This document shows positions 5,352-24,021 of a stretch of 64,000 bases of DNA, piece by piece. The stretch's first letter is position 1. Each line of letters begins with the position of its first letter. Position numbers and translations under genes: made by a program. A model generated the notes under the pieces. It ran no database searches and was not told where the DNA came from. It saw nothing but the letters and a program-made list of their open reading frames with translations. This stretch comes from Alphaproteobacteria bacterium (GTDB lineage: Bacteria > Pseudomonadota > Alphaproteobacteria > UBA6615). The stretch covers positions 2,401 to 66,400 of the forward strand of contig SHVS01000012.1 of assembly GCA_009694135.1 (NCBI GenBank). The letters are read 5' to 3'.

Positions 5352-5513
5352 TGCTCGACGAGAGTAAGTCACGGGCCATCGTGAGGGTGGGGTCGGATCG
5401 CAGCGCGGTCCGGCCCCTCCTCCCGCAAGAGGCCTTCGACTGGCGTGGCCCGCGCTAGGCCGGTAACGCGACGGCGGTGCAAGCTAAATGGACCTCCGAC
5501 CGGGATTATTTCA

Positions 5514-7013
5514 ATGATGCGAAATACGCGTGCCGGAACAATTGCGGTCCTTGCCGCTGTTACTCTTCTGCTATCGAACGCAGCCGTCGCGCAAGCCCCA
5601 GTGAGCGTGGCCCCTGGCGGTGCTGAAAGTCGACCGCGCCGCGATACCATCTGGGACCTGCCGCTCGGCGCGCATGCGAAGGAGTTGCGGCGCGACGTTT
5701 ATTCAGGTTTCGCCTGCGGCAGCGATGGCGGGCCGCCTGGCATTCCGCTCAAGTCCTGGGCCGAATTCGCCCGCTGTCGCGCCGAGCCGAAGACCGGTTT
5801 TCACGAAGTCTACTTCCGCTACGACGAAGAGCTTGAATATCGCAGCAAGGCGCTCGACCCAATGGGCGAGACCGGCGTGCGCCACGAGGGCACGTCCGAA
5901 TTTCAGCAACCGATCATTGTCTCCGCGCTATTCGACGATTTCGGCTTTTTGAGCGGAGTTCGCCTCGTCACCGATCCGCGAACGACGTCGGATCTGCGTG
6001 AGCGCGGCGTCCGTCTGGCGGACGCGCTGCAAAGCCGCTTCGGCTTTGCAGGTTGGGCGTGCGAGGACCTGGAACCGGCCGAGGGCGAAACGCCCTACCG
6101 CAATTCCCTGATCAAGTCGCGCTGCACCAAGGACAATCCCGCGGGCGGCGTGCGCATGGTGATCGAGCGGCACTTCTACCGCAAGAAGGGCCAGGTGATG
6201 GTTGACGCGGTCACCCGCGCTGTGACCGAGGGCGCCTTCGCCAGCGAGACTCGTTTTCATAGCATTCTGACCAAGCCGGTCCCGGATGCTGCCGCGCGCC
6301 ATGCCACTATTGCCGAGCCGACGCCCACCGCGGTCGAGCGCCTGGCGGAGCGAGTGCGAAATTGCCGTGGCTGCGATCTGCGCGGGCTCGACCTTAAATC
6401 GGCTGACCTGCGCGACGCGAAGCTCGCCGGCGCCGATCTGTCGGGTGCGATCCTGCACGCCGCCGACCTGACCGGCGCGGACCTGACTGGGGCCAATCTC
6501 GGCGGCGCCAATCTTAACCGCGCCAATCTCCGTCGCGCCCGCCTCTCGGGCGCCAACCTGAGTAGCGCGATGCTGTACGAGGCTCGGCTCGATGGCGCCG
6601 ACCTTACCGACGCGAATATGTCACAGGCCAATGCGGCGCGGGCGGAAATGACCAGCGCGGTCGCGCCGCGGCTGATCGCTTTCGACGCCGATCTGCGTTT
6701 CGCGCGCATGCTCGGCATCGATCTTTCGGGCGCGGACTTAAGCGGGTCGTGGCTCAACGACGCTCAGCTCGCGCGCTCGAACCTGGAGCGGATCAGCCTG
6801 GTCGATGCCCGCCTGTGGAGCACGTCGCTGATCGAGGTCAATCTGCGCCAGGCCAACGCGCTCCGGGCAGACCTCACCCATGCCGACCTACGCGGCGCAG
6901 ATCTATCGTCGGCGAATTTCTCTTCGGCGCGGATGTCTTTTGCGGTGGTTGCCAACATGATCACGGCAAACACGGTTTTCGAGGACGCGGAACTGCCCGC
7001 CGGCCTGCGCTAA
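5514..7013 (+). CDS. secreted pentapeptide-repeat protein with unknown ~270-aa N-terminal domain
   Basis: Signal peptide is MMRNTRAGTIAVLAAVTLLLSNAAVAQA. The C-terminal ~200 aa are uninterrupted A(D/N)LxG-type pentapeptide repeats (DLRGLDLKSADLRDAKLAGADLSGAILHAADLTGADLTGANLGGANL...). Confidence 0.8.
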   Translation: MMRNTRAGTIAVLAAVTLLLSNAAVAQAPVSVAPGGAESRPRRDTIWDLPLGAHAKELRRDVYSGFACGSDGGPPGIPLKSWAEFARCRAEPKTGFHEVYFRYDEELEYRSKALDPMGETGVRHEGTSEFQQPIIVSALFDDFGFLSGVRLVTDPRTTSDLRERGVRLADALQSRFGFAGWACEDLEPAEGETPYRNSLIKSRCTKDNPAGGVRMVIERHFYRKKGQVMVDAVTRAVTEGAFASETRFHSILTKPVPDAAARHATIAEPTPTAVERLAERVRNCRGCDLRGLDLKSADLRDAKLAGADLSGAILHAADLTGADLTGANLGGANLNRANLRRARLSGANLSSAMLYEARLDGADLTDANMSQANAARAEMTSAVAPRLIAFDADLRFARMLGIDLSGADLSGSWLNDAQLARSNLERISLVDARLWSTSLIEVNLRQANALRADLTHADLRGADLSSANFSSARMSFAVVANMITANTVFEDAELPAGLR

Positions 7014-7102
7014 CGTTGCGGGGGCCGCTGCAGGGGCTGTGCCGATCGCGCGGCGCGGGCAGCTGAACGGCGGTTGAAGGGCAGTAGCATGGAGGGCGCC
7101 GA

Positions 7103-7612
7103 ATGCGCGGCTTGTTGACGATCGGACGCACGATTGTGATGTTTGGCCTGTTGCTAGGCGCCCTGCCGGTACTCGCGCAGGACGCTAAGCCGGACCCCGC
7201 GATGGTGACGCTGGGCGAGGGGTTCTGGAAGCGGTCAGAATGCCGCAACTGCCATGGCGGCCTTGCCAACGGCATTCCGGACATGCCGCAAGATCCGCAA
7301 GGCGCCAACCTGCGCAAGGCACAGCTCAGCCTGCCGCAGATCGCCGAAGTGATAAAGTGCGGCCGACCGGGCACCGAGATGCCGTATTTCGATAGTCTCG
7401 CCTACACCGACAAGCGCTGCTACGGTGCAACTGCAGCGGATCTGGGCAACGCCATGCCGCCGGGTGGCAGTGCCATGAGCCAGCGACAAATTGATGCACT
7501 GGCCGCGTTTGTCGCGGCCACCTTCGTCGGCAAACCGGACCCAACCTTCGAGGATTGCGTCGCGCTCTGGGGCGAGGCGGCGACGACCTGCGCGCGCTTC
7601 CCCAAGAAATAA
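7103..7612 (+). CDS. periplasmic c-type cytochrome
   Basis: GGAGGG RBS and a signal peptide. There is a single CxxCH heme motif (SECRNCHGG), and a distal Met (GTEMPYF) could be the axial ligand. Confidence 0.75.
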   Translation: MRGLLTIGRTIVMFGLLLGALPVLAQDAKPDPAMVTLGEGFWKRSECRNCHGGLANGIPDMPQDPQGANLRKAQLSLPQIAEVIKCGRPGTEMPYFDSLAYTDKRCYGATAADLGNAMPPGGSAMSQRQIDALAAFVAATFVGKPDPTFEDCVALWGEAATTCARFPKK

Positions 7613-7765
7613 GCCAGGCGAACGGACCCTGGTGATCGACGTCGGGTGGTGGGTGATCGAGGCGGAATGTCAGTGCATGACCGGCTTTAGCTCCAGCGAG
7701 AGCGTGACCGGCGAAGCGGGTTGAGGGCGCGCAACCGGCCGCGCGGGCTACCGCCCTGCGGAACG

Positions 7766-7949: not shown

Positions 7950-8025
7950 TGGTGCCGCCTGGGTGACTCGAACACCCGACCCCCGCATTACGAATGCGAT
8001 GCTCTACCGGCTGAGCTAAGGCGGC
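7950..8025 (-). tRNA. tRNA-Thr (anticodon CGU)
   Basis: The reverse complement folds by hand into a cloverleaf. Acceptor GCCGCCT pairs with AGGCGGC, D arm is GCTC/GAGC, anticodon stem is TCGCA/TGCGG with loop TTCGTAA, and T arm is GGGTG/CACCC. CCA is encoded. Length 76 nt. Confidence 0.92.
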
Positions 8026-14195: not shown

Positions 14196-15194
14196 ATGCA
14201 GCGGGTCGTGGTCTATGGCGCCGGCGCCTTTGGGACGGCGCTGGCGATCGCCGCGCGGCGTGCCGGACGCGAGGTGGCGCTGCTCGCGCGCGATGCGGCG
14301 GCGGCCGCGGCGATCGCGCAGGCGGGTGAAAATCGCGCCTATCTTCCGGGTATTCGCATCGACAAGGCCATCCGCGTGACCGGTGACGCGGCGGTATTGG
14401 CCGCGGCCGAGATCGTGATCCTGGCGACACCGGCCCAGTCCGTGCGCGCCGCCGCCGCGGCGCTCGCGCCCCGGATTCAGCCCCGCACGCCGGTCGTGTT
14501 GGCGACCAAGGGCATCGAGCAAGCGACCGGCCTGCTCGCCGGCGAAGTGCTCGCCGAGTCCTTGCCGCAGGCGCGCGTCGCGATGCTGTCCGGCCCCTCC
14601 TTCGCGCATGAGATCGGTCAGGGTTTGCCCACGGCAGTGACCGTTGCGGCCGGCGCGGAAGCGCTCGCCCTCGCGCTTGTCCAGGCGCTCGGATCGGTAT
14701 CTTTCCGGCCCTATGCCTCGACCGATCTGATCGGCGTCGAACTGGGCGGTGTGGTCAAGAACGTGATCGCCATCGCCTGTGGAATCGCGCTCGGCCGCGG
14801 CTTTGGCGAAAATGCGCGCGCCGCGCTGATGACGCGCGGGCTGGCGGAGATGGCGCGCCTCGGCCACGCGCTCGGCGCCGATGCGCGCACCTTCATCGGC
14901 CTCGCCGGGATCGGCGATCTGGCGCTGACCGCCACCTCGACCGCCTCGCGCAATTATTCGCTCGGCCTCGCGCTCGGGCGCGGCAAGAGCTTTTCCGAGG
15001 CGACCGGCGGCGGCAAGGTTTTGGCCGAGGGCGCCTTCACCGCCCCGGCCTTGCTCGCCCGCGCCAAACGCGAAGGCGTCGAGATGCCGATCGCGGCCGC
15101 GGTCGACGCCGTGCTGCATCGCGGCGCGGCGGTCGATGCCACCATCAAGGAATTACTCGCCCGGCCCTTCCGCGCCGAACAGGCCGCGTATTGA
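14196..15194 (+). CDS. gpsA: NAD(P)H-dependent glycerol-3-phosphate dehydrogenase
   Basis: Rossmann motif MQRVVVYGAGAFGTALA, followed by LATKGIE, GPSFAHE and VVKNVIAIA. Confidence 0.92.
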   Translation: MQRVVVYGAGAFGTALAIAARRAGREVALLARDAAAAAAIAQAGENRAYLPGIRIDKAIRVTGDAAVLAAAEIVILATPAQSVRAAAAALAPRIQPRTPVVLATKGIEQATGLLAGEVLAESLPQARVAMLSGPSFAHEIGQGLPTAVTVAAGAEALALALVQALGSVSFRPYASTDLIGVELGGVVKNVIAIACGIALGRGFGENARAALMTRGLAEMARLGHALGADARTFIGLAGIGDLALTATSTASRNYSLGLALGRGKSFSEATGGGKVLAEGAFTAPALLARAKREGVEMPIAAAVDAVLHRGAAVDATIKELLARPFRAEQAAY

Positions 15195-16345: not shown

Positions 16346-17983
16346 ATGAATCGCCCATCCAATGTCCGGCCCCTGCATCTTCGTCCGGCGGCAACGCCCA
16401 CCACGCGTGACCGCTTGCAGACGATGCCGAGCGCGAGCCCGGTTCGCTTCTACGCCGGGCTGTTGCTGACCACGGCGACGACGCTTGCGCTGCAAATCCT
16501 GTTCACGCGGATTCTGTCGCTGGTCGCCTGGTATCACCTTGCCTTCTTCGCCATCAGCATGGCGATGTTCGGCCTGACCGCCGGGGCGGTGTGGGTCTAT
16601 CGCGGCGGGAAGCGCTATTCCACGAATTCGCTGGCGCGCGATCTGCCGTATTATACTTTGCTGTTCGCGCTTTCGAGCGCATTGGCGCTGGTCGCGCTGC
16701 TGTCGCTCGCTCCGGCCGGAACCTCCACCCTGACTTCGGCCGTGATCTGGCTCGAAATGGCGCTGGCGCTGGCGACGCCGTTCTTCTTTTCCGGCATGGT
16801 GGTGAGCCTGGCGCTCACCCGCAGCCCCTATCCGGTGGGGCGCGTTTACGGCGTCGATCTGGTCGGCGCGGGCTTCGGCTGTCTTGGCGTGCTCGTCTTG
16901 TTGAATCTGACCGATGGCCCGTCCGCGGTGTTGTGGACCTCGGCGGCGGCGGCGCTGGCGGCCTATCTGTTCCTGCCGACGAAATCCGGCGCGGGCATTG
17001 CGCGCAGCGCGCTGCTGATCGCCGGCGTACTGGCGGGCGTGGCGGCGCTCAATGGTTTATCGCTGCGCGGGTTGCAGCCGATCATTGTCAAGGGCGATGT
17101 CGCCAAGCGTGGGCCAGAGCTCGACTTCGAGCATTGGAATACTTTTTCGCGCGTGGCCGGAACCCAGTCATCCGTGCATTCGCCCTTCATGTGGGGACCC
17201 TCGCCGAAAATGGACCGCGGTCTCACTTTCGAACAGCGCGGGCTCGACATCGACGGCGCGGCCTATACGGCGATGTATCGCTTCAATGGCGAGCGCGCGA
17301 GCGTCGCGTTCCTGCAAGACGATCTGACCAACCTGGTTTACGCCTTGCCCGGCCGCAAGCGTGCGGCGGTGATCGGCGTCGGCGGCGGCCGCGATGTGTT
17401 GTCGGCCTGGGCGAATGGCGCGGAATCGGTGACCGGCGTCGAGATCAATCCGGTGTTCATTCGCTTGCTGACGCGCGACCTGGCCGATTACGCCGGCCTG
17501 GCGCGCCTGCCCGGCATGCATTTCGAGGTCGACGAGGCGCGCAGCTGGTTCGCCGCCAGCCGCGAACGCTTCGACACCATCCAGATGAGCATGATCGACA
17601 CCTGGGCCGCGACCGGCGCCGGCGCCTTCACCCTGTCGGAAAACGGGTTGTACACGGTCGAAGCCTGGCGCGTGTTCCTCGACCATCTGACACCGCAGGG
17701 CGCGTTCAATGTCAGCCGCTGGTTCGCGCCGGGCGAGGTCAACGAGACCGGGCGCATGATCAGCCTGGCCATGGCCGTGCTGCTGGAAGAGGGCGCGCCA
17801 GATCCGGCGCGACACATTTTCCTCGCCTCGGCCAAACGCATCGCCACGCTGGTGCTGGCGCGCAATCCGCTGTCGCCCGAAGACCTGGATGCGCTCACCC
17901 GCAGCGCCGAGACACGCGGCTTCGATGTGCTGCTGCACCCCGACCGCGCACCATGCTTTTGCCTGTTCCCGGGCCTGCAATAA
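16346..17983 (+). pseudogene. spermidine-synthase-like membrane protein, N-terminal part (interrupted by insertion)
   Basis: About 7 N-terminal TM helices followed by a class I MTase / spermidine synthase-like fold (VIGVGGGRDV, GVEINPVF, DTIQMSMIDTW, LSENGLYTVEAW). It ends at TAA 17981-17983, exactly where the composition turns AT-rich. Confidence 0.75.
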
Positions 17984-18036
17984 CATTGATAACTTTCATA
18001 TTATTATTATAGCAAAATACTTATAAGAAGTCAAGG

Positions 18037-18063
18037 AAACAGGGCAACCAATGTGCCCTGTTT
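18037..18063 (-). terminator. hairpin terminator downstream of the cassette operon
   Basis: AAACAGGGCA-N7-TGCCCTGTTT forms a perfect 10-bp stem. On the minus strand it is followed by TTTCCTT. It lies 80 nt after the lipoprotein stop codon. Confidence 0.6.
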
Positions 18064-18143
18064 AGCGGTACCATACGAAGCAATTTTTAAAACGGTACCA
18101 TATTTTTACGCTTTAAGTGTAGTGTTAACTGTCCAAATTACTG

Positions 18144-19292
18144 TTATTGGATTGGAATTTGAATCAATGCTCCAACGTCACTGGTAACGAAACCATCTTT
18201 TTCCACAATCCAGTCGATCCATTTATTACCAGGGCGTCCAGGTTCTGTCCATGTAGGATTTGCATACAGCACTGTGCTGATGCGGGTTGTAAGATCAAAC
18301 TTTTGCACCCACATGCCTTCATAAAATACAGTACCGTTTGCCTGCCCGTCGCCAGTTCGTGTAATGTATAAAGCATTAACGGATTTAACGTACAAGAAGT
18401 CTGTGATAACACCTGCGCCTGGCACAGCGGGAATTACTATCTCGGTGGGACGATTAAACAAACTTCCGCCAAAATCATTGTTACCCGGATTAATAATAAT
18501 GCGGGTAGCATCTTGCCATTCATGACTGCCTGCCACCATGTCATATTTGCCGTCACCATTCAAGTCCAGCAATTCAACATGAAATGCTCGGCGCTGTTGC
18601 GGAATAGTTAATGCAGTGGAACGTGTAAAACGTCCAGTCCGATCGTTAATAAAAACGTCAGGTTGATCTTTATTGGTCAGAATCAAATCAGGATAACCGT
18701 CATCATTGATGTCAGCACTGGCGCCACCGTGTTGAAAACCCACTGTGTCTGACAGATAATCCATTTTGTATTTGCCCGATGGCTGGCTTAGTAATACTCG
18801 ACTGCGTTCACCGGGAAAGGGGGCGGCGTCCCAGCCATGACATGCAATAGCAAAGTCGACGACCCCGTCTTGATTATAGTCGGCCATGATGGCCTTGCGT
18901 GGATGCTGGCATCCAGGAACACTATTAGCAGAATCAAATACCGTTTGTGTGTGTGGAAGCCATTGGCCATTTACTTGCTTGTAAAAATGAACAACGGACG
19001 GCAGCGCATTTTCTACTGTGGCATTCCAAGGCCCATTTGTTAGTTTAACTAAAACATATCCCAATGCGCCGTCGGGGTATTTAAAAATCGCTCGTGCGTT
19101 TCCAATTATGGGTAGGGTCGCTGTATATGAATATGCTTGATGTCGGTTTTCATAACTCAACTGAGAAACAACTGCAGGCGGGATTGGAACTGTTGGTGGA
19201 TCAACTGGAGCAGTGCTTGCTCCGCCGCCACCACATGCAGTCAATAGTCCCAATAAAAGAACTAAAGGGAGAAGAGATTTATGTAATTGCAT
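18144..19292 (-). CDS. FG-GAP/VCBS-repeat lipoprotein
   Basis: AAGGA RBS. Lipoprotein signal MQLHKSLLPLVLLLGLLTAC followed by GGGG and a Pro/Thr linker. Three Ca-binding-type repeats: DYNQDGVVDF, DINDDGYPDL and DLNGDGKYDM. Confidence 0.8.
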   Translation of the reverse strand: MQLHKSLLPLVLLLGLLTACGGGGASTAPVDPPTVPIPPAVVSQLSYENRHQAYSYTATLPIIGNARAIFKYPDGALGYVLVKLTNGPWNATVENALPSVVHFYKQVNGQWLPHTQTVFDSANSVPGCQHPRKAIMADYNQDGVVDFAIACHGWDAAPFPGERSRVLLSQPSGKYKMDYLSDTVGFQHGGASADINDDGYPDLILTNKDQPDVFINDRTGRFTRSTALTIPQQRRAFHVELLDLNGDGKYDMVAGSHEWQDATRIIINPGNNDFGGSLFNRPTEIVIPAVPGAGVITDFLYVKSVNALYITRTGDGQANGTVFYEGMWVQKFDLTTRISTVLYANPTWTEPGRPGNKWIDWIVEKDGFVTSDVGALIQIPIQ

Positions 19293-19306
19293 AATAGATC
19301 CTTAAA

Positions 19307-19633
19307 TTAAAGAGGCATGTGGTATTGAAAGCCCTGTGCAGACACTTTCTTGAAGATACCTTCTGCGGCCCAGTCTTGTTCAAGCAAACGCAGAGTCTTA
19401 CGATCTGCAATTAGTGCTCCGTCTTGCACCTTGACGCTGCCACTCTTTTTACCGTAAGATGGCTCGTAAACAGTGCCACGCAACACCAGCTCAAGGGCTA
19501 GTTTGATTCGGTCTAAACGAATTTGCTGAGCCTGAGTATACAGTGTTTTATTTGCATGATTGCGCATACGGCGATCTTGTAATGCAAAAAACTTGTTATT
19601 AGATTCTTTAGTGTTAAGAGACAATGTCAACAT
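19307..19633 (-). CDS. hypothetical 108-aa protein (no recognisable family)
   Basis: ATG 19633 is preceded by AAAGGA. The ORF matches the AT-rich cassette composition, and its stop lies 14 nt before the lipoprotein ATG. The longer track ORF 19307-20272 is a composition chimera. Confidence 0.6.
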   Translation of the reverse strand: MLTLSLNTKESNNKFFALQDRRMRNHANKTLYTQAQQIRLDRIKLALELVLRGTVYEPSYGKKSGSVKVQDGALIADRKTLRLLEQDWAAEGIFKKVSAQGFQYHMPL

Positions 19634-19699
19634 ACTAATCCTTTTTGCTGTGTATGTATGTACAGTGTATTGCGAAATTGATAGCTTCATTCCCACAGG

Positions 19700-20167
19700 G
19701 TCTATGCGCTCTCGATCACGCTGTTCTGCCTGATCCTTTCGACCGGCTTCGGCAGCCTGTTGAGCGAACGCCTGCGGCTTGATACGCAGGGCCGCCTTAC
19801 GCTTTGGGCGCTGGCGACGACCGCGTATCTGGCGCTGTTGCCGCTGTGGCTGCCGGCGCTGACCGCCGGCTTCGACGACCAGGGCCTGATCATCCGCGCG
19901 GCGGTCGCCATTGCCGCGATCGCTCCGGCCGGGCTGTTGATGGGCTTCGGCTTTCCCACCGGCATGCGCCTGATCAACGCCCAAGACCAACGGCCGACGC
20001 CGTGGTTCTGGGGCCCAAACGGCGCCGCCGGCGTGCTCGCCTCCGGCCTTGCCGTCGCGCTGTCGATGACCTTCGGCATCGGCGTAACCTTGGTCGCCGG
20101 AGCCGCCTGCTACCTTCTGCTGATCCCGGCCGCGCGCGTGATCGGCTTCCCGACGGCCGAGGACTGA
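19700..20167 (+). pseudogene. spermidine-synthase-like membrane protein, C-terminal TM part
   Basis: Same reading frame as 16346-17983. VYALSITLFCLILSTGFGSLLSERL...GFGFPTGMRLI...PWFWGPNGAAGVLASGLAV form C-terminal TM helices typical of the long membrane-bound family members. Confidence 0.7.
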
Positions 20168-22169: not shown

Positions 22170-22440
22170 GACGGACTGCATGCTGGCTTGGTACAGGCCA
22201 TAGGCCGTGCCCTTGACGCTCGAAGAACCGCTACGAGCACTCATATCCGAAGCGTGCGACGCGGCATTGCCGGGCAAGCAGTACACAAGTGAAGTCAAGC
22301 GGTGGCAGAAAGATCCTGACGGGCTCTTCCGGCCTCTTGTCGCGCGGCAACGCGCGCGTTAGACACTGAAATTCAACTCGCTCTCGACCCATGACTCATG
22401 TCTTGAAACCGCCAAGGCCGTCCCAGCGCTCGGCTCACAA

Positions 22441-23541
22441 TTGGACACGATGGTCGGAACTTGGATGAGCCGTGAAAGGCTCCAATTCGACGGTATTCTT
22501 TGGTCACTACTTGCTGCGATGCCGTCGGAAGACAACCGCTTGAAGTTCGACGCGCGAAGCTTCCAGGACCAATGGAGCAAGATCGATTCACTCTTGCAAG
22601 CAACCTCGATTGAGATTGTAACCATCGCTCCGATTCCGGGACTATTCGGCAATTTTCCTATTCAGCTGGCTCCCGGTCTTGAGTTGGATTCCTTTACGAG
22701 TGACGAAGTAACGCGATGTGTAAATATGTCTCTCTTGCATTCATTCGTTCAGGGCCAAGAGCTTATTCGCGCGGAACAGGCCGTCGGAGTGAGATACAAA
22801 TTATCCGACCCTAAAGTTGCCGGAGACTCGCAGGCCGAGGTTCCTCGCGGTTGGTTTGGCCATCGCGCAACCTTCGAAAGCTTTCTCATTGTGGACGATG
22901 TGCTTGCCATGTTGAGACTATTCCAAAGTGGCACCGCGGAGTGTACAGGCTCACTGTCTTTTTTTGATCGCTGGCTGCTTCAGGGAAGCACACACACTCA
23001 CCATCGCAAGAGTCGACCACATTTGTTTGCCAGCTATCGAATAGCGAGTGACGCCACAGACACGCTCAAGCAGCTTTGGCAGTTATTGACTTCCGGCGTT
23101 CTCGAAAATCACAGCTTCATTGAAGTCGCCTTGCGTCGATTTAGTATGGCCTGGGAACGCAGCCTGATCGAAGACCGTATGATAGACCTCATGATCGCGG
23201 CGGAGGCGCTATTCCTAAGTGGGCCTGGGTCACGCAAGGATCGAGGAGAGATGCGATTTCGTCTCGCGCTTCGAGCCGCGTGTTTTGTCGAGACAGCGGG
23301 TATGAGTCGTAGAGAGACATTTGGGCTCATGCGGGATGCCTATGATGTACGAAGCAGCGTGGTTCATGGCGGTCACATGGAGGAGGTAAATATTATTAAG
23401 AAACGCTCTGTATCTGCCGACGTTTTTACTACGGCTGTTGGTGACGTAGTTCGGAGAGCCATACTAAAGGCTATTGCCACACCTGAAATCGGCCAGGATA
23501 ATTTCTGGGATGACTTAATATTTCCTTATACGATGACGTAA
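22441..23541 (+). CDS. hypothetical protein with C-terminal HEPN-like domain (Rx4H motif)
   Basis: 366-codon ORF in a ~52% G+C islet. The C-terminal helical region is DLMIAAEALFL...RFRLALRAACFV...MRDAYDVRSSVVHGG, with R-x4-H at nt 23350-23367. The start is uncertain (TTG 22441, ATG 22450 or ATG 22465). Confidence 0.55.
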   Translation: MDTMVGTWMSRERLQFDGILWSLLAAMPSEDNRLKFDARSFQDQWSKIDSLLQATSIEIVTIAPIPGLFGNFPIQLAPGLELDSFTSDEVTRCVNMSLLHSFVQGQELIRAEQAVGVRYKLSDPKVAGDSQAEVPRGWFGHRATFESFLIVDDVLAMLRLFQSGTAECTGSLSFFDRWLLQGSTHTHHRKSRPHLFASYRIASDATDTLKQLWQLLTSGVLENHSFIEVALRRFSMAWERSLIEDRMIDLMIAAEALFLSGPGSRKDRGEMRFRLALRAACFVETAGMSRRETFGLMRDAYDVRSSVVHGGHMEEVNIIKKRSVSADVFTTAVGDVVRRAILKAIATPEIGQDNFWDDLIFPYTMT

Positions 23542-23565
23542 GCGCGGCGCGAAAACGCATGCCGT

Positions 23566-24021
23566 CTAATCTCGATTGCACCAGCCCGCGCGAGCGGCGC
23601 CGAAATACGCGCGGGCAAAGCCGGTGGAGATGAGCAGATCGGCGAGGTCGGCGCCATCATTCGAGGCGACGCGGGCGCGCACGCGCTCGCCGTATTTGTC
23701 GGCGCGCACCTCGGTCAAGATCACCGGCCCGGCGCCGATCCGTTCGGTGAGGAACGCCTTCGCGTGCAGAGCCTGCGCGCGCTCGGTCGGGCATTTGCCA
23801 TGCAGCTCGGGCGCGTCCACGCCTTCGAGCCGCACCAGCGTCGTGACCTCCAGCCCCAGCCAGATGCGCGCCCTGACCTCGATCGTGTCGCCATCGACGA
23901 CGCGCAAGACCTGCGCCGGAATCGGCCCCGGCACGGGCTCCTCCCCCGCGCGCGCGGGCGCGATGATCAGCGCCAGGATCAGCGCGGCGATGAAGCGGAA
24001 GCGGTGCGTCGGATACGACAT
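23566..24021 (-). CDS. secreted thermonuclease (staphylococcal nuclease-like) family protein
   Basis: Signal peptide is followed by VVDGDTIEV...VRLEGVDAPE and later DKYGERV, the SNase-fold motifs. Confidence 0.8.
   Translation of the reverse strand: MSYPTHRFRFIAALILALIIAPARAGEEPVPGPIPAQVLRVVDGDTIEVRARIWLGLEVTTLVRLEGVDAPELHGKCPTERAQALHAKAFLTERIGAGPVILTEVRADKYGERVRARVASNDGADLADLLISTGFARAYFGAARAGWCNRD

Follow-up and report, generated by a model that had tools for sequence, protein, structure and literature searches.

As reported by Dupuy et al. 2018 (PMC6379672), the alphaproteobacterium S. meliloti captures a heterologous linear fragment at an I-SceI break in an NHEJ-dependent manner, with end deletions. 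In yeast, linear fragments are captured at double-strand breaks (PMC1976456), and the NUMT-type insertions cited in PMC6379672 represent organelle DNA captured at breaks. Natural bacterial examples of fragment capture at base resolution are scarce. Here, we analysed a 64-kb window (the whole stretch of DNA under study) of the chromosome of a Lake Baikal alphaproteobacterium, in which a predicted membrane spermidine-synthase-like gene is interrupted by a short segment of foreign DNA. We consider an illegitimate, end-joining-type capture of a jumbo-phage fragment to be the probable origin of this locus.

The foreign segment is set off by its composition. The G+C content per 60-nt line drops from 0.68-0.72 in the host gene to 0.33-0.50 in the insert, and then returns to ~0.67-0.70; the GC content of the whole segment (Table 1) stands against 63-68% in the flanking host DNA and 0.65 window-wide. 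The GC3 of the two insert genes, g1 and g2, is 0.37-0.41 vs 0.83-0.88 in the host gene halves. Per-line GC and GC3 both confirm the abrupt switch noticed in the initial annotation, in which line 17821-17880 had been counted as 72% G+C (71.7% when recomputed). The same annotation set the limits of the insert at 17981-19690. These limits are corrected here to 17954 and about 19696, with the left boundary of the foreign DNA at 17953/17954 and the right boundary at about 19696/19697.

Table 1. Features of the interrupted host gene and of the foreign segment, in window coordinates.
Feature	Position	Strand	Remarks
Host gene, 5' part, 536 codons	16346..17953	+	Homology to intact homologues stops at ...VLLHPDRAP; GC3 0.83
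Whole foreign segment	17954..19696	-	1,743 bp, 43.6% GC; 17954-19662 collinear with jumbo-phage genomes
Start of phage AAA_28 P-loop gene, initial 46 nt (MKVINVIAGPGTGKS, Walker A), cut off by the junction	17954..17999	-	46/46 nt identical to L009
Sigma-70-type promoter of phage AAA_28 gene (TTGACT-17-TGcTATAAT)	18006..18034	-	11/12; conserved in all phage relatives
Hairpin, 10-bp stem, terminator-like, after g1	18037..18063	-	-14.5 kcal/mol; conserved in phage relatives
g1, 382-aa predicted lipoprotein, FG-GAP/VCBS repeats	18144..19292	-	PF13517 at 2.5e-17; lipobox LLTAC
g2, 108 aa, conserved jumbo-phage-clade gene, alpha/beta fold	19307..19633	-	115 homologues, contigs up to 365 kb
g2 leader and ribosome-binding site, last phage-homologous stretch	19634..19662	-	Collinear phage alignment
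Junction stretch, ~34 nt, 41% GC	19663..19696		No match to host or any phage relative
Host gene, 3' part, ~156 codons	19697..20167	+	Homology resumes at VYALS...

The interruption of a GC-rich membrane spermidine-synthase-like gene by foreign low-GC DNA, as first proposed, is supported. The name of the gene follows the source annotations of its homologues, by which the product would be a membrane spermidine-synthase-like or class I SAM-methyltransferase-like protein. Its only Pfam match, Methyltransf_25, scored 17.5 bits, below the cut-off of 27, and the intact homologue P0006 had no match in NCBIfam. We confirmed that ORF 16346-17983 ends at TAA 17981 and that the downstream host part lies in the same reading frame. 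The final nine codons and the stop of this 545-aa ORF lie in antisense phage DNA, and the MAG annotation lists the 3' part of the host gene as an ORF of its own, 135 aa long and beginning at 19760. Annotators should read the 545-aa and 135-aa ORFs as the halves of a single broken gene.

The deletion of 17981-19690, carried out in silico in the initial annotation, indeed results in an ORF of 703 codons, but this is not the ancestral gene. The intact homologues have about 815 aa, and the host gene here lacks 135-141 codons (~405-425 bp), including the conserved D-x-RPFFFNQL motif. Since this part was lost, the ORF restored by the exact 1710-bp deletion is a one-in-three frame coincidence; exact excision restoring the host gene is ruled out, and the event was not a simple insertion. 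The host gene is a pseudogene. We found no intact host allele with >58% identity among 5.8 billion protein clusters and no orthologous empty site in GTDB species representatives, where the best match was 57% aa. The collections hold no close relative of the host in which two natively separate genes could have been seen.

The origin of the insert had been left unexplained. Judged by collinear homology, the donor is a recognisable freshwater jumbo-phage lineage. A single blastn alignment of 1,739 nt, with 78.5% identity, joined the insert to phage contig L009, and identity to contigs L003, L018 and L102 was 80-84% at the nucleotide level. The native gene order on L009 is SNase-g2-g1-AAA_28, and in all ten relatives homology breaks off at 17954 and at 19662 of the window. 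Jumbo-phage genomes of the donor type come from freshwater and have about 240-365 kb, with a GC content of 0.42-0.43, matching that of the insert (0.436). The g2 gene is carried by 36 IMG/VR viral contigs, some of 240-354 kb, and by contigs of 306-365 kb; g1 or g2 is found on L005 and 36 further IMG/VR UViGs of up to 354 kb. Within about 10 kb on each side of g1/g2, the genes of the phage contigs include those for endolysin, S21, ClpX, HSP20, ClpS, ribonucleotide reductase and DNA ligase; virion hallmark genes (terminase, portal, major capsid) were not seen in this range. The g2/g1 pair of the donor phages is flanked upstream by a stem-loop-plus-promoter element and downstream by a hairpin-plus-promoter element, and the two genes are variably present among close phage relatives; g1 and g2 also occur independently of each other.

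Searches of PLSDB plasmids and INPHARED phages (blastn, tblastn) with the insert, g1 and g2 gave no match, and no donor at least 95% identical was found in IMG/VR, JGI metagenomes and cluster members, where the closest candidates reached 84% nt identity for g1 and 97-99% aa identity for g2. We also considered the published Bacteroidetes-infecting S21 phages. Identity with them is unlikely, as the S21 gene lies in a different context and the promoters and ribosome-binding sites of the donor are of the canonical sigma-70 and AAGGA types. The GC contents of phage and recipient lie 22 points apart, which speaks against this bacterium as the normal host of the phage.

Within the insert, we found the two minus-strand genes that had been described, each with AAGGA before it, and the hairpin was present with its 10-bp stem. 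The hairpin contains one compensatory C-G to T-A change in the alignment with L003. The assignment of g1 to FG-GAP/VCBS proteins is based on scores above gathering for PF13517 (63.6 bits, cut-off 26.9) and PF01839 (40.2 bits, cut-off 22.1). Homologues of g1 in phage contigs share 75-91% aa identity, and g1 is a variable accessory gene in the donor phage lineage. There was no sequence match of g1 in the PDB, and a match to the XAC2610 family was only sub-threshold. The predicted structure of g2 (pLDDT 88) matched solely uncharacterised 'uncultured Caudovirales phage' proteins by fold, with TM 0.91; neither fold nor sequence of g2 had a match in the PDB, and Pfam, PHROG, NCBIfam and PADLOC gave none.

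The insert had also been described as a self-contained transcription unit, which does not hold, as its ends cut the g2 promoter and, at nt 46, a third gene, AAA_28. The complete AAA_28 gene in relatives encodes 171-172 aa and matches PF13521 at 7.7e-16. In the L009 alignment, the 46/46 nt identity in the start of this gene gives way to abrupt divergence beyond the left junction. The AAA_28 promoter at 18006-18034 is now oriented antisense into the truncated host gene and, from its sequence, would be a strong phage promoter firing into the gene remnant. At the opposite end, the conserved phage g2 promoter (TTGACAAC...GTATAAT) is severed at or just upstream of the -10 box, and g2 has probably lost its promoter. 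The adjoining stretch 19663-19696 would be filler DNA or else what is left of the promoter after divergence. Meanwhile, g1 retains its ribosome-binding site, lipoprotein signal and terminator, and it may be expressed in, or useful to, the recipient.

This anatomy fits illegitimate end-joining capture and offers a mechanism for an insertion that the initial annotation could not explain. The fragment ends are arbitrary and lack element-specific termini, and the junctions bear scars, namely the 135-141 deleted codons and the 34 unmatched nucleotides, as in end-joining capture. We propose that a double-strand break arose inside the membrane spermidine-synthase-like gene, and that resection of the break, or a loss of some other kind, removed about 405-425 bp from the host. 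A linear jumbo-phage fragment would then have been ligated in, with essentially no homology at the left and ~25-34 nt of unmatched filler at the right. The captured fragment would have been arbitrary with respect to gene boundaries, starting inside the g2 promoter and ending 46 nt into AAA_28. Repair may have proceeded by a Ku/LigD-type or other end-joining pathway, and the phage DNA may have entered the cell by abortive injection or by transformation with free DNA.

Homology-facilitated illegitimate recombination in Acinetobacter and Streptococcus typically results in replacement, that is, in a deletion plus an insertion, and the present locus shows this outcome. Homology-facilitated or microhomology-templated recombination after natural transformation, either with a homologous anchor on one side and an illegitimate join on the other or by replication template switching, would moreover be in line with a marginal similarity between the left host flank and the phage beyond the junction, which extends over 54 nt with gaps (score 13 vs null 9.2 +/- 1.4, p about 0.02). 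However, this similarity is only ~65% identical, lies 72-125 nt from the junction and is 8-10 nt out of register, whereas the right host flank has no significant similarity to the phage, and 43% vs 68% GC makes an anchor unlikely. We regard such recombination as very unlikely. A host SNase gene 4 kb away was also considered as an anchor with the g2-adjacent phage SNase and rejected, as the two share only 34% aa identity.

The junctions recur in independent assemblies. Both junctions are spanned by Logan contigs from each of SRR8561391 (1350 m) and SRR8561390 (1250 m), with SNPs among them at 14505 and 16944 in the host and at 18703 in the insert. The surroundings are also the same on another ENA contig, of 50 kb, whose g1 differs by two residues. 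The same junctions are present in the NCBI MAG, in two ENA contigs and in the per-run Logan assemblies of both water samples; the insertion occurs in two Lake Baikal water samples and in two strain variants. One could suspect an assembly or binning artefact, in which phage reads were joined into a bacterial contig, given the metagenomic data, the abrupt composition switch and a donor phage lineage that is common in freshwater metagenomes. This explanation is barely credible: the contig re-enters the same gene, strand and neighbourhood after the insert, the junctions recur across samples with sample-specific SNPs in host and insert, and no intact allele was recovered. An assembly chimera had been named at the outset as grounds for dismissal. 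Because the same junctions are found in independent assemblies and in a second strain variant, the insert is not one.

A second capture was found in a Dehalococcoidia MAG (GCA_009692935.1) from the same lake, where contig L101 carries a different g1-family fragment inside a lipoprotein gene. It is a clean 1.1-kb insertion with junctions at 6633/6634 and 7755/7756 of L101, fused in frame, and its empty site is recoverable. Relative to g1, its ends fall at about codon 30 and +46 nt, entirely unlike the present locus, and the fusion places a signal-less g1 domain behind the host lipoprotein signal peptide. The L101 capture hints at selection for g1. A second, independent g1-family capture in another phylum is unexpected under purely random capture from a ~350-kb genome and suggests that something more, be it selection or an ascertainment effect, lies behind the two events. 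It is possible, if rather unlikely, that unrelated bacteria which are not hosts of the jumbo phages repeatedly take up g1-family FG-GAP lipoprotein genes from them by recombinase-free end-joining capture, and do so selectively. If so, the captures would persist since exported g1 benefits the recipient, e.g. by changing the cell surface or blocking phage adsorption, and there would be a natural cross-phylum gene flow from phages to bacteria that needs neither homology nor mobile-element enzymes.

In agreement with the initial annotation, we detected no integrase or transposase domains in the insert; no integrase adjoins it, and none of the 30 inverted-repeat pairs forms terminal inverted repeats at its ends. 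There is no target-site duplication at the insert ends and no attC-like structure in the insert; the sole strong hairpin, 18037-18063, lies within the insert, with a further promoter and the start of a gene after it. The only tRNA in the window, tRNA-Thr at 7950-8025, lies 10 kb from the insert. The imperfect direct repeat that had been seen to bracket the insert is at chance level: at least two matches arose in 12 of 100 window shuffles and, in a separate test against the insert, 48% of shuffles matched just as well. The conserved region around the start codon of the phage AAA_28 gene accounts for one copy, and the other sits within the junction stretch 19663-19696; we rejected the repeat as a target duplication.

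These results bear on the model implied by the initial annotation, in which a cassette that mobilises itself or is mobilised by an enzyme would have inserted as a unit, whether as a MITE- or IS-like element, as another small mobile element or as an integron cassette at a secondary site. Two complete genes plus a hairpin, the 14-15-nt imperfect direct repeat near both ends, and the insertion of a g1-family gene in another genome could be read that way. Nevertheless, we hold it to be highly improbable: the insert is cut off within a promoter at one end and within a gene at the other, both part of a phage segment collinear with it; terminal inverted repeats, an attC-like structure and a target duplication are absent, and the repeat is not significant, with one copy belonging to the AAA_28 start. 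Furthermore, the L101 insert has entirely different end points, g2 and g1 are independent in phages, and the plasmid and phage records searched contained no similar DNA.

It is quite unlikely that the segment is the remnant of a larger integrated element of phage or other DNA, later trimmed to 1.7 kb with ~410 bp of host loss. Secondary deletions would fit the host deletion and the unmatched 34 nt, and the insert ends are arbitrary, but at least two extra events would be needed. The 64-kb window holds no other phage-related DNA and no further copies of the insert, none of the phage relatives shows an integrase or att-like features in the vicinity of g1/g2, and the clean 1.1-kb L101 insertion shows that short fragments can be captured directly.

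Transfer independent of homology and of mobile-element enzymes is often invoked and has laboratory proof in an alphaproteobacterium; base-resolved natural cases with an identifiable donor are rare. With end-joining capture as the preferred reading, the present locus is such a natural case at base level, with a jumbo-phage donor, a recipient 22 GC points apart and a defined deletion scar, and the capture persists at the population level across samples. Together with the L101 capture, it provides a template for scanning MAGs and for asking whether certain phage accessory genes are preferentially kept.

Among known systems, integron cassettes and IS/MITE elements resemble the insert in small size and in gene disruption, and integron cassettes and MITEs also in encoding no recombinase. 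They differ in that the insert lacks attC, terminal inverted repeats and target-site duplication, and breaks off within functional units of the donor genome with which it is collinear. Like the insert, cryptic prophage remnants and site-specific genomic islands place phage-derived genes of deviant composition in the chromosome, whereas the insert has no integrase, att/tRNA target or flanking repeats, is only 1.7 kb long and, compared with prophage remnants, stems from a jumbo, apparently non-temperate-type genome region. Phage 'morons', known from lambdoid phages, are autonomous promoter-gene-terminator units that are variably present in phage genomes. The position of g2/g1 between hairpin/promoter elements and their variable presence in the donor phages are reminiscent of morons; that concept, however, covers gain by phages, while here the transfer went from a phage to a bacterial chromosome and the unit was arbitrarily cut.

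The capture of filler or organelle DNA in eukaryotes is similar in that an arbitrary foreign fragment patches a break, often with short filler and a flanking deletion, although eukaryotic pathways are involved. The capture in S. meliloti (PMC6379672) shares with the present locus a non-homologous linear fragment in a chromosomal gene, the lack of a recombinase and, probably, of homology, end deletions and an alphaproteobacterial recipient. There, the I-SceI break was induced in the laboratory and the cassette introduced by electroporation, whereas the present locus is natural, contains phage DNA, and shows a host deletion of ~410 bp along with ~34 nt of filler.

The composition switch reported in the initial annotation was confirmed. 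GC content dropped from 0.68-0.72 to 0.33-0.50 at ~17950-19700 and then returned to ~0.67-0.70, while GC3 stood at 0.83-0.88 for both parts of the host gene, against 0.37-0.41 for the two internal genes, g1 (FG-GAP lipoprotein) and g2 (phage-clade gene). The plus-strand ORF 16346-17983 with its TAA at 17981, the same-frame downstream ORF reaching 20167, the two minus-strand genes, each preceded by AAGGA, and the hairpin were also found as described. Removal in silico of 17981-19690 indeed gave 703 uninterrupted codons. This description was sound; the anatomy (left edge, direct repeat and restored ORF) had to be corrected, as shown below.

Coordinates of the features (positions in the window unless another locus is named)
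Feature	Locus	Coordinates	Strand	Remarks
g1		18144-19292	minus	382 aa; lipobox LLTAC; Pfam FG-GAP_3 match at 2.5e-17
g2		19307-19633	minus	108 aa; no family match
Hairpin		18037-18063		10-bp stem, -14.5 kcal/mol
Left-edge promoter		18034-18006	minus	TTGACT-17 nt-TGcTATAAT; 11/12 consensus positions
Stem-loop/promoter element		18006-18063
Stem-loop/promoter elements	L003	9560-9660, 13458-13590
Stem-loop/promoter elements	L009	3552-3660, 5147-5314
Second g1-family insert	L101 (GCA_009692935.1, SHYE01000003.1, Lake Baikal)	6634-7755		1,122 bp, 45% GC; genome 65% GC
g1 homologue	L109 (GCA_974441935.1, 145.9-kb contig)	5494-6627		62% aa identity, ~50% GC
454-aa g1 variant	L106	3574-4938		77% identity
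Host SNase		23566-24021	minus	4 kb from insert
Phage SNase	L003	9108-9554		directly upstream of g2
358-aa ORF		22465-23541	plus	R-x4-H motif (RSSVVH)
669-aa predicted membrane protein		267-2276	plus	~52% GC stretch at window start
tRNA-Thr (CGT)		7950-8025	minus	sole RNA family match in window

The locus is not an assembly artefact. A chimera was rejected, as the contig exits and re-enters one and the same gene, and both junctions were spanned in the per-run Logan assemblies of SRR8561391 (99.99% identity) and SRR8561390 (99.95%), which derive from separate Lake Baikal samples taken at 1350 m and 1250 m, respectively (PMC7678222). The Logan contigs differed at 14505 and 16944 (host) and 18703 (insert). 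Another 50-kb ENA contig presented the same context, with g1 differing at two residues and another MalQ length. The protein-cluster homologue search recovered no intact host allele.

The 545-aa product of the interrupted ORF was identical to the hypothetical protein EXQ88_05160 of an Alphaproteobacteria MAG (68.8-kb contig); the next best of its 4,879 homologues shared only 58% identity. Full-length homologues, named membrane-bound spermidine synthase or class I SAM-dependent methyltransferase in their sources, are nearly all ~810-830 aa long. In the alignment with seven of them, homology ended at ...VLLHPDRAP (nt 17953) and restarted at VYALS... (~nt 19697). Between these two points, 135-141 residues of the homologues have no counterpart, among them the conserved D-x-RPFFFNQL motif and the hydrophobic, probably transmembrane, stretches after it. 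In consequence, the event was a replacement that cost ~405-425 bp and added ~1,743 bp. It left the host gene broken, and excision would not restore it; the 703-codon ORF is a coincidence of frame. Among GTDB species representatives no close host relative was found (best 57%), and hence no orthologous empty site.

Foreign DNA reaches 27 nt further left than the boundary originally placed at 17981. The left-edge promoter is followed by ATGAAAGTTATCAAT...GGCAAAAGC, translating as MKVINVIAGPGTGKS, a Walker A motif, after which the reading frame degenerates; the foreign DNA thus holds the beginning of a third gene, the phage P-loop gene AAA_28. From the AAA_28 ATG (17999) down to 17954, the phage contig L009 (44.6 kb) matched the window over 46 nt without a difference and diverged completely beyond, the window being host sequence from 17953. 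The final nine codons and stop of the "545-aa ORF" are, in fact, antisense phage sequence. The strong AAA_28 promoter is now directed antisense into the host gene remnant; this surviving near-consensus element could yield antisense RNA.

At the right junction, the 31 nt 5′ of the g2 ATG were identical to L009, and the conserved phage promoter (TTGACAAC...GTATAAT) was severed at or just upstream of the -10 box; g2 has probably lost its promoter. The homology of all phage relatives stopped at 19662, and the next 34 nt (41% GC) matched neither phage relatives nor the host. The ends of phage homology at 17954 and 19662 therefore place the fragment ends within a gene and within a promoter. The direct repeat said to bracket the insert was no better than chance. 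One copy is the AAA_28 start read in reverse complement, and the other belongs to the unmatched 34 nt. No terminal inverted repeats, target duplication or recombinase were found at the insert, and no usable phage homology in the host flanks. A gapped similarity of ~54 nt (~65% identity) was observed between window 17829-17881 and the phage AAA_28 coding sequence 82-133 nt past the left junction (L009, L003, L010, L018). It was marginal (p ~0.02), 72-125 nt from the junction, at a nearly equal offset in the two sequences and out of register; it was judged a chance match.

Only 123 relatives of g1 were detectable among 5.8 billion protein clusters. Many were 75-91% identical and lay on long contigs of 42-43% GC, whose neighbourhoods, read over ~10 kb around each match, were dense and co-directional. 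They comprised DNA ligase, two radical-SAM genes, SNase, sometimes g2, g1, zero to three variable genes and a 171-172-aa AAA_28, as well as endolysin, ClpX, ribosomal protein S21, HSP20, ClpS and SprT. L009 had exactly the order SNase-g2-g1-AAA_28, and one continuous alignment of 1,739 nt (78.5% identity) covered window 19662-17954. The 115 homologues of g2 included several on 306-365 kb contigs that also carried ribonucleotide reductase and DNA ligase, and g2 occurred in 36 IMG/VR viral contigs, some of 240-354 kb. Its confident structure model (pLDDT 88) resembled, at TM 0.91, solely proteins labelled "uncultured Caudovirales phage", all uncharacterised; the PDB gave no match. Neither the cultured and GenBank phages of INPHARED nor any plasmid searched had similar DNA or proteins. 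We conclude that the donor was an uncultured freshwater jumbo-phage lineage, in whose ~10-kb neighbourhoods, as read here, no virion genes appeared. That the promoters are canonical sigma-70 and the ribosome-binding sites AAGGA speaks for a proteobacterial phage host and not for Bacteroidetes, which the published S21 phages infect.

End-joining capture at a break fits the anatomy: the donor fragment is arbitrary, homology is not evident, recipient sequence was deleted and a short apparent filler is present. A putative chromosomal break within the host gene would have been joined to an arbitrary phage fragment by illegitimate end-joining, with recipient deletion and short filler as the outcome and no homology used. 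That a phage fragment was captured illegitimately, without a recombinase, we regard as probable, and the specific Ku/LigD version as roughly half as probable. In the alphaproteobacterium S. meliloti, an induced break was shown to capture a heterologous linear fragment in a Ku/LigD-dependent manner, with deletions at the ends (PMC6379672). The enzyme system acting here and the route by which 43% GC phage DNA entered a 65% GC bacterium are, like the break itself, inferences. The ribosome-binding site and signal peptide of g1 are retained, as is the hairpin downstream.

Unexpectedly, an apparent second capture was found through P0191, a g1 homologue (50% identity) that the same project's Dehalococcoidia MAG encodes. 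The L101 insert sits in a family-5 solute-binding lipoprotein gene, and its empty site was defined by intact 550-554-aa alleles (P0361, P0362; at least 90% identical) from other metagenomes; the interrupted allele is on record in the NCBI MAG only. Zero host sequence was lost, and no more than 2-3 nt were shared at the joints. The fragment begins at ~codon 30 of the g1 homologue, hence without the signal peptide, continues in frame from the N-terminus and signal peptide of the host lipoprotein, and ends 46 nt past the stop codon. The insert in the window has other end points, and this again speaks against a discrete element. Both captures retain a g1 predicted to be exportable, suggesting selection; the recurrence may reflect ascertainment, as the second capture turned up in a search with g1.

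Genes of the g1 family were present in ordinary bacterial neighbourhoods, too. In L109, and likewise L110, the neighbours were CoA-transferase, TctC, FolB, an MFS transporter and MlrC, with a phage-integrase and Prim-Pol island ~3 kb downstream. TctC also adjoins g1 in the closest phage relative, L102; the TctC proteins are just 31% identical. The 454-aa variant in L106, L107 and L108 (ENA ERZ272755xx-series contigs) has an N-terminal extension with an internal repeat, and, in contrast to the phage contexts, these contigs have genes on mixed strands and exceptionally long non-coding gaps.

Elsewhere in the window, the 358-aa ORF lies between acetyl-CoA synthetase and the host SNase gene, in an island (22300-23600) of ~52% GC, ~13 GC points under its surroundings. 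It had no match in Pfam, NCBIfam or PADLOC and may be another acquired gene. Host and phage SNase are just 34.5% identical, so that the occurrence of both was judged a coincidence, and the tRNA is unconnected with the insert.

In the phage relatives, every block of genes lying between SNase and AAA_28 has a stem-loop and then a sigma-70 promoter ahead of it. Which genes stand between the elements differs among close relatives (g2 present or absent, zero to three genes after g1), and the L003 hairpin carries one compensatory C-G to T-A change. This arrangement resembles the promoter-stem-loop modules by which, it has been proposed, genes are shuffled in T4-type phages. The insertion itself exemplifies in nature a process already known, gene transfer by illegitimate recombination, and does not represent a novel type of mobile element. 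It provides a base-resolved example involving a jumbo phage, which would gain in interest if the recurrence of g1 proves non-random.
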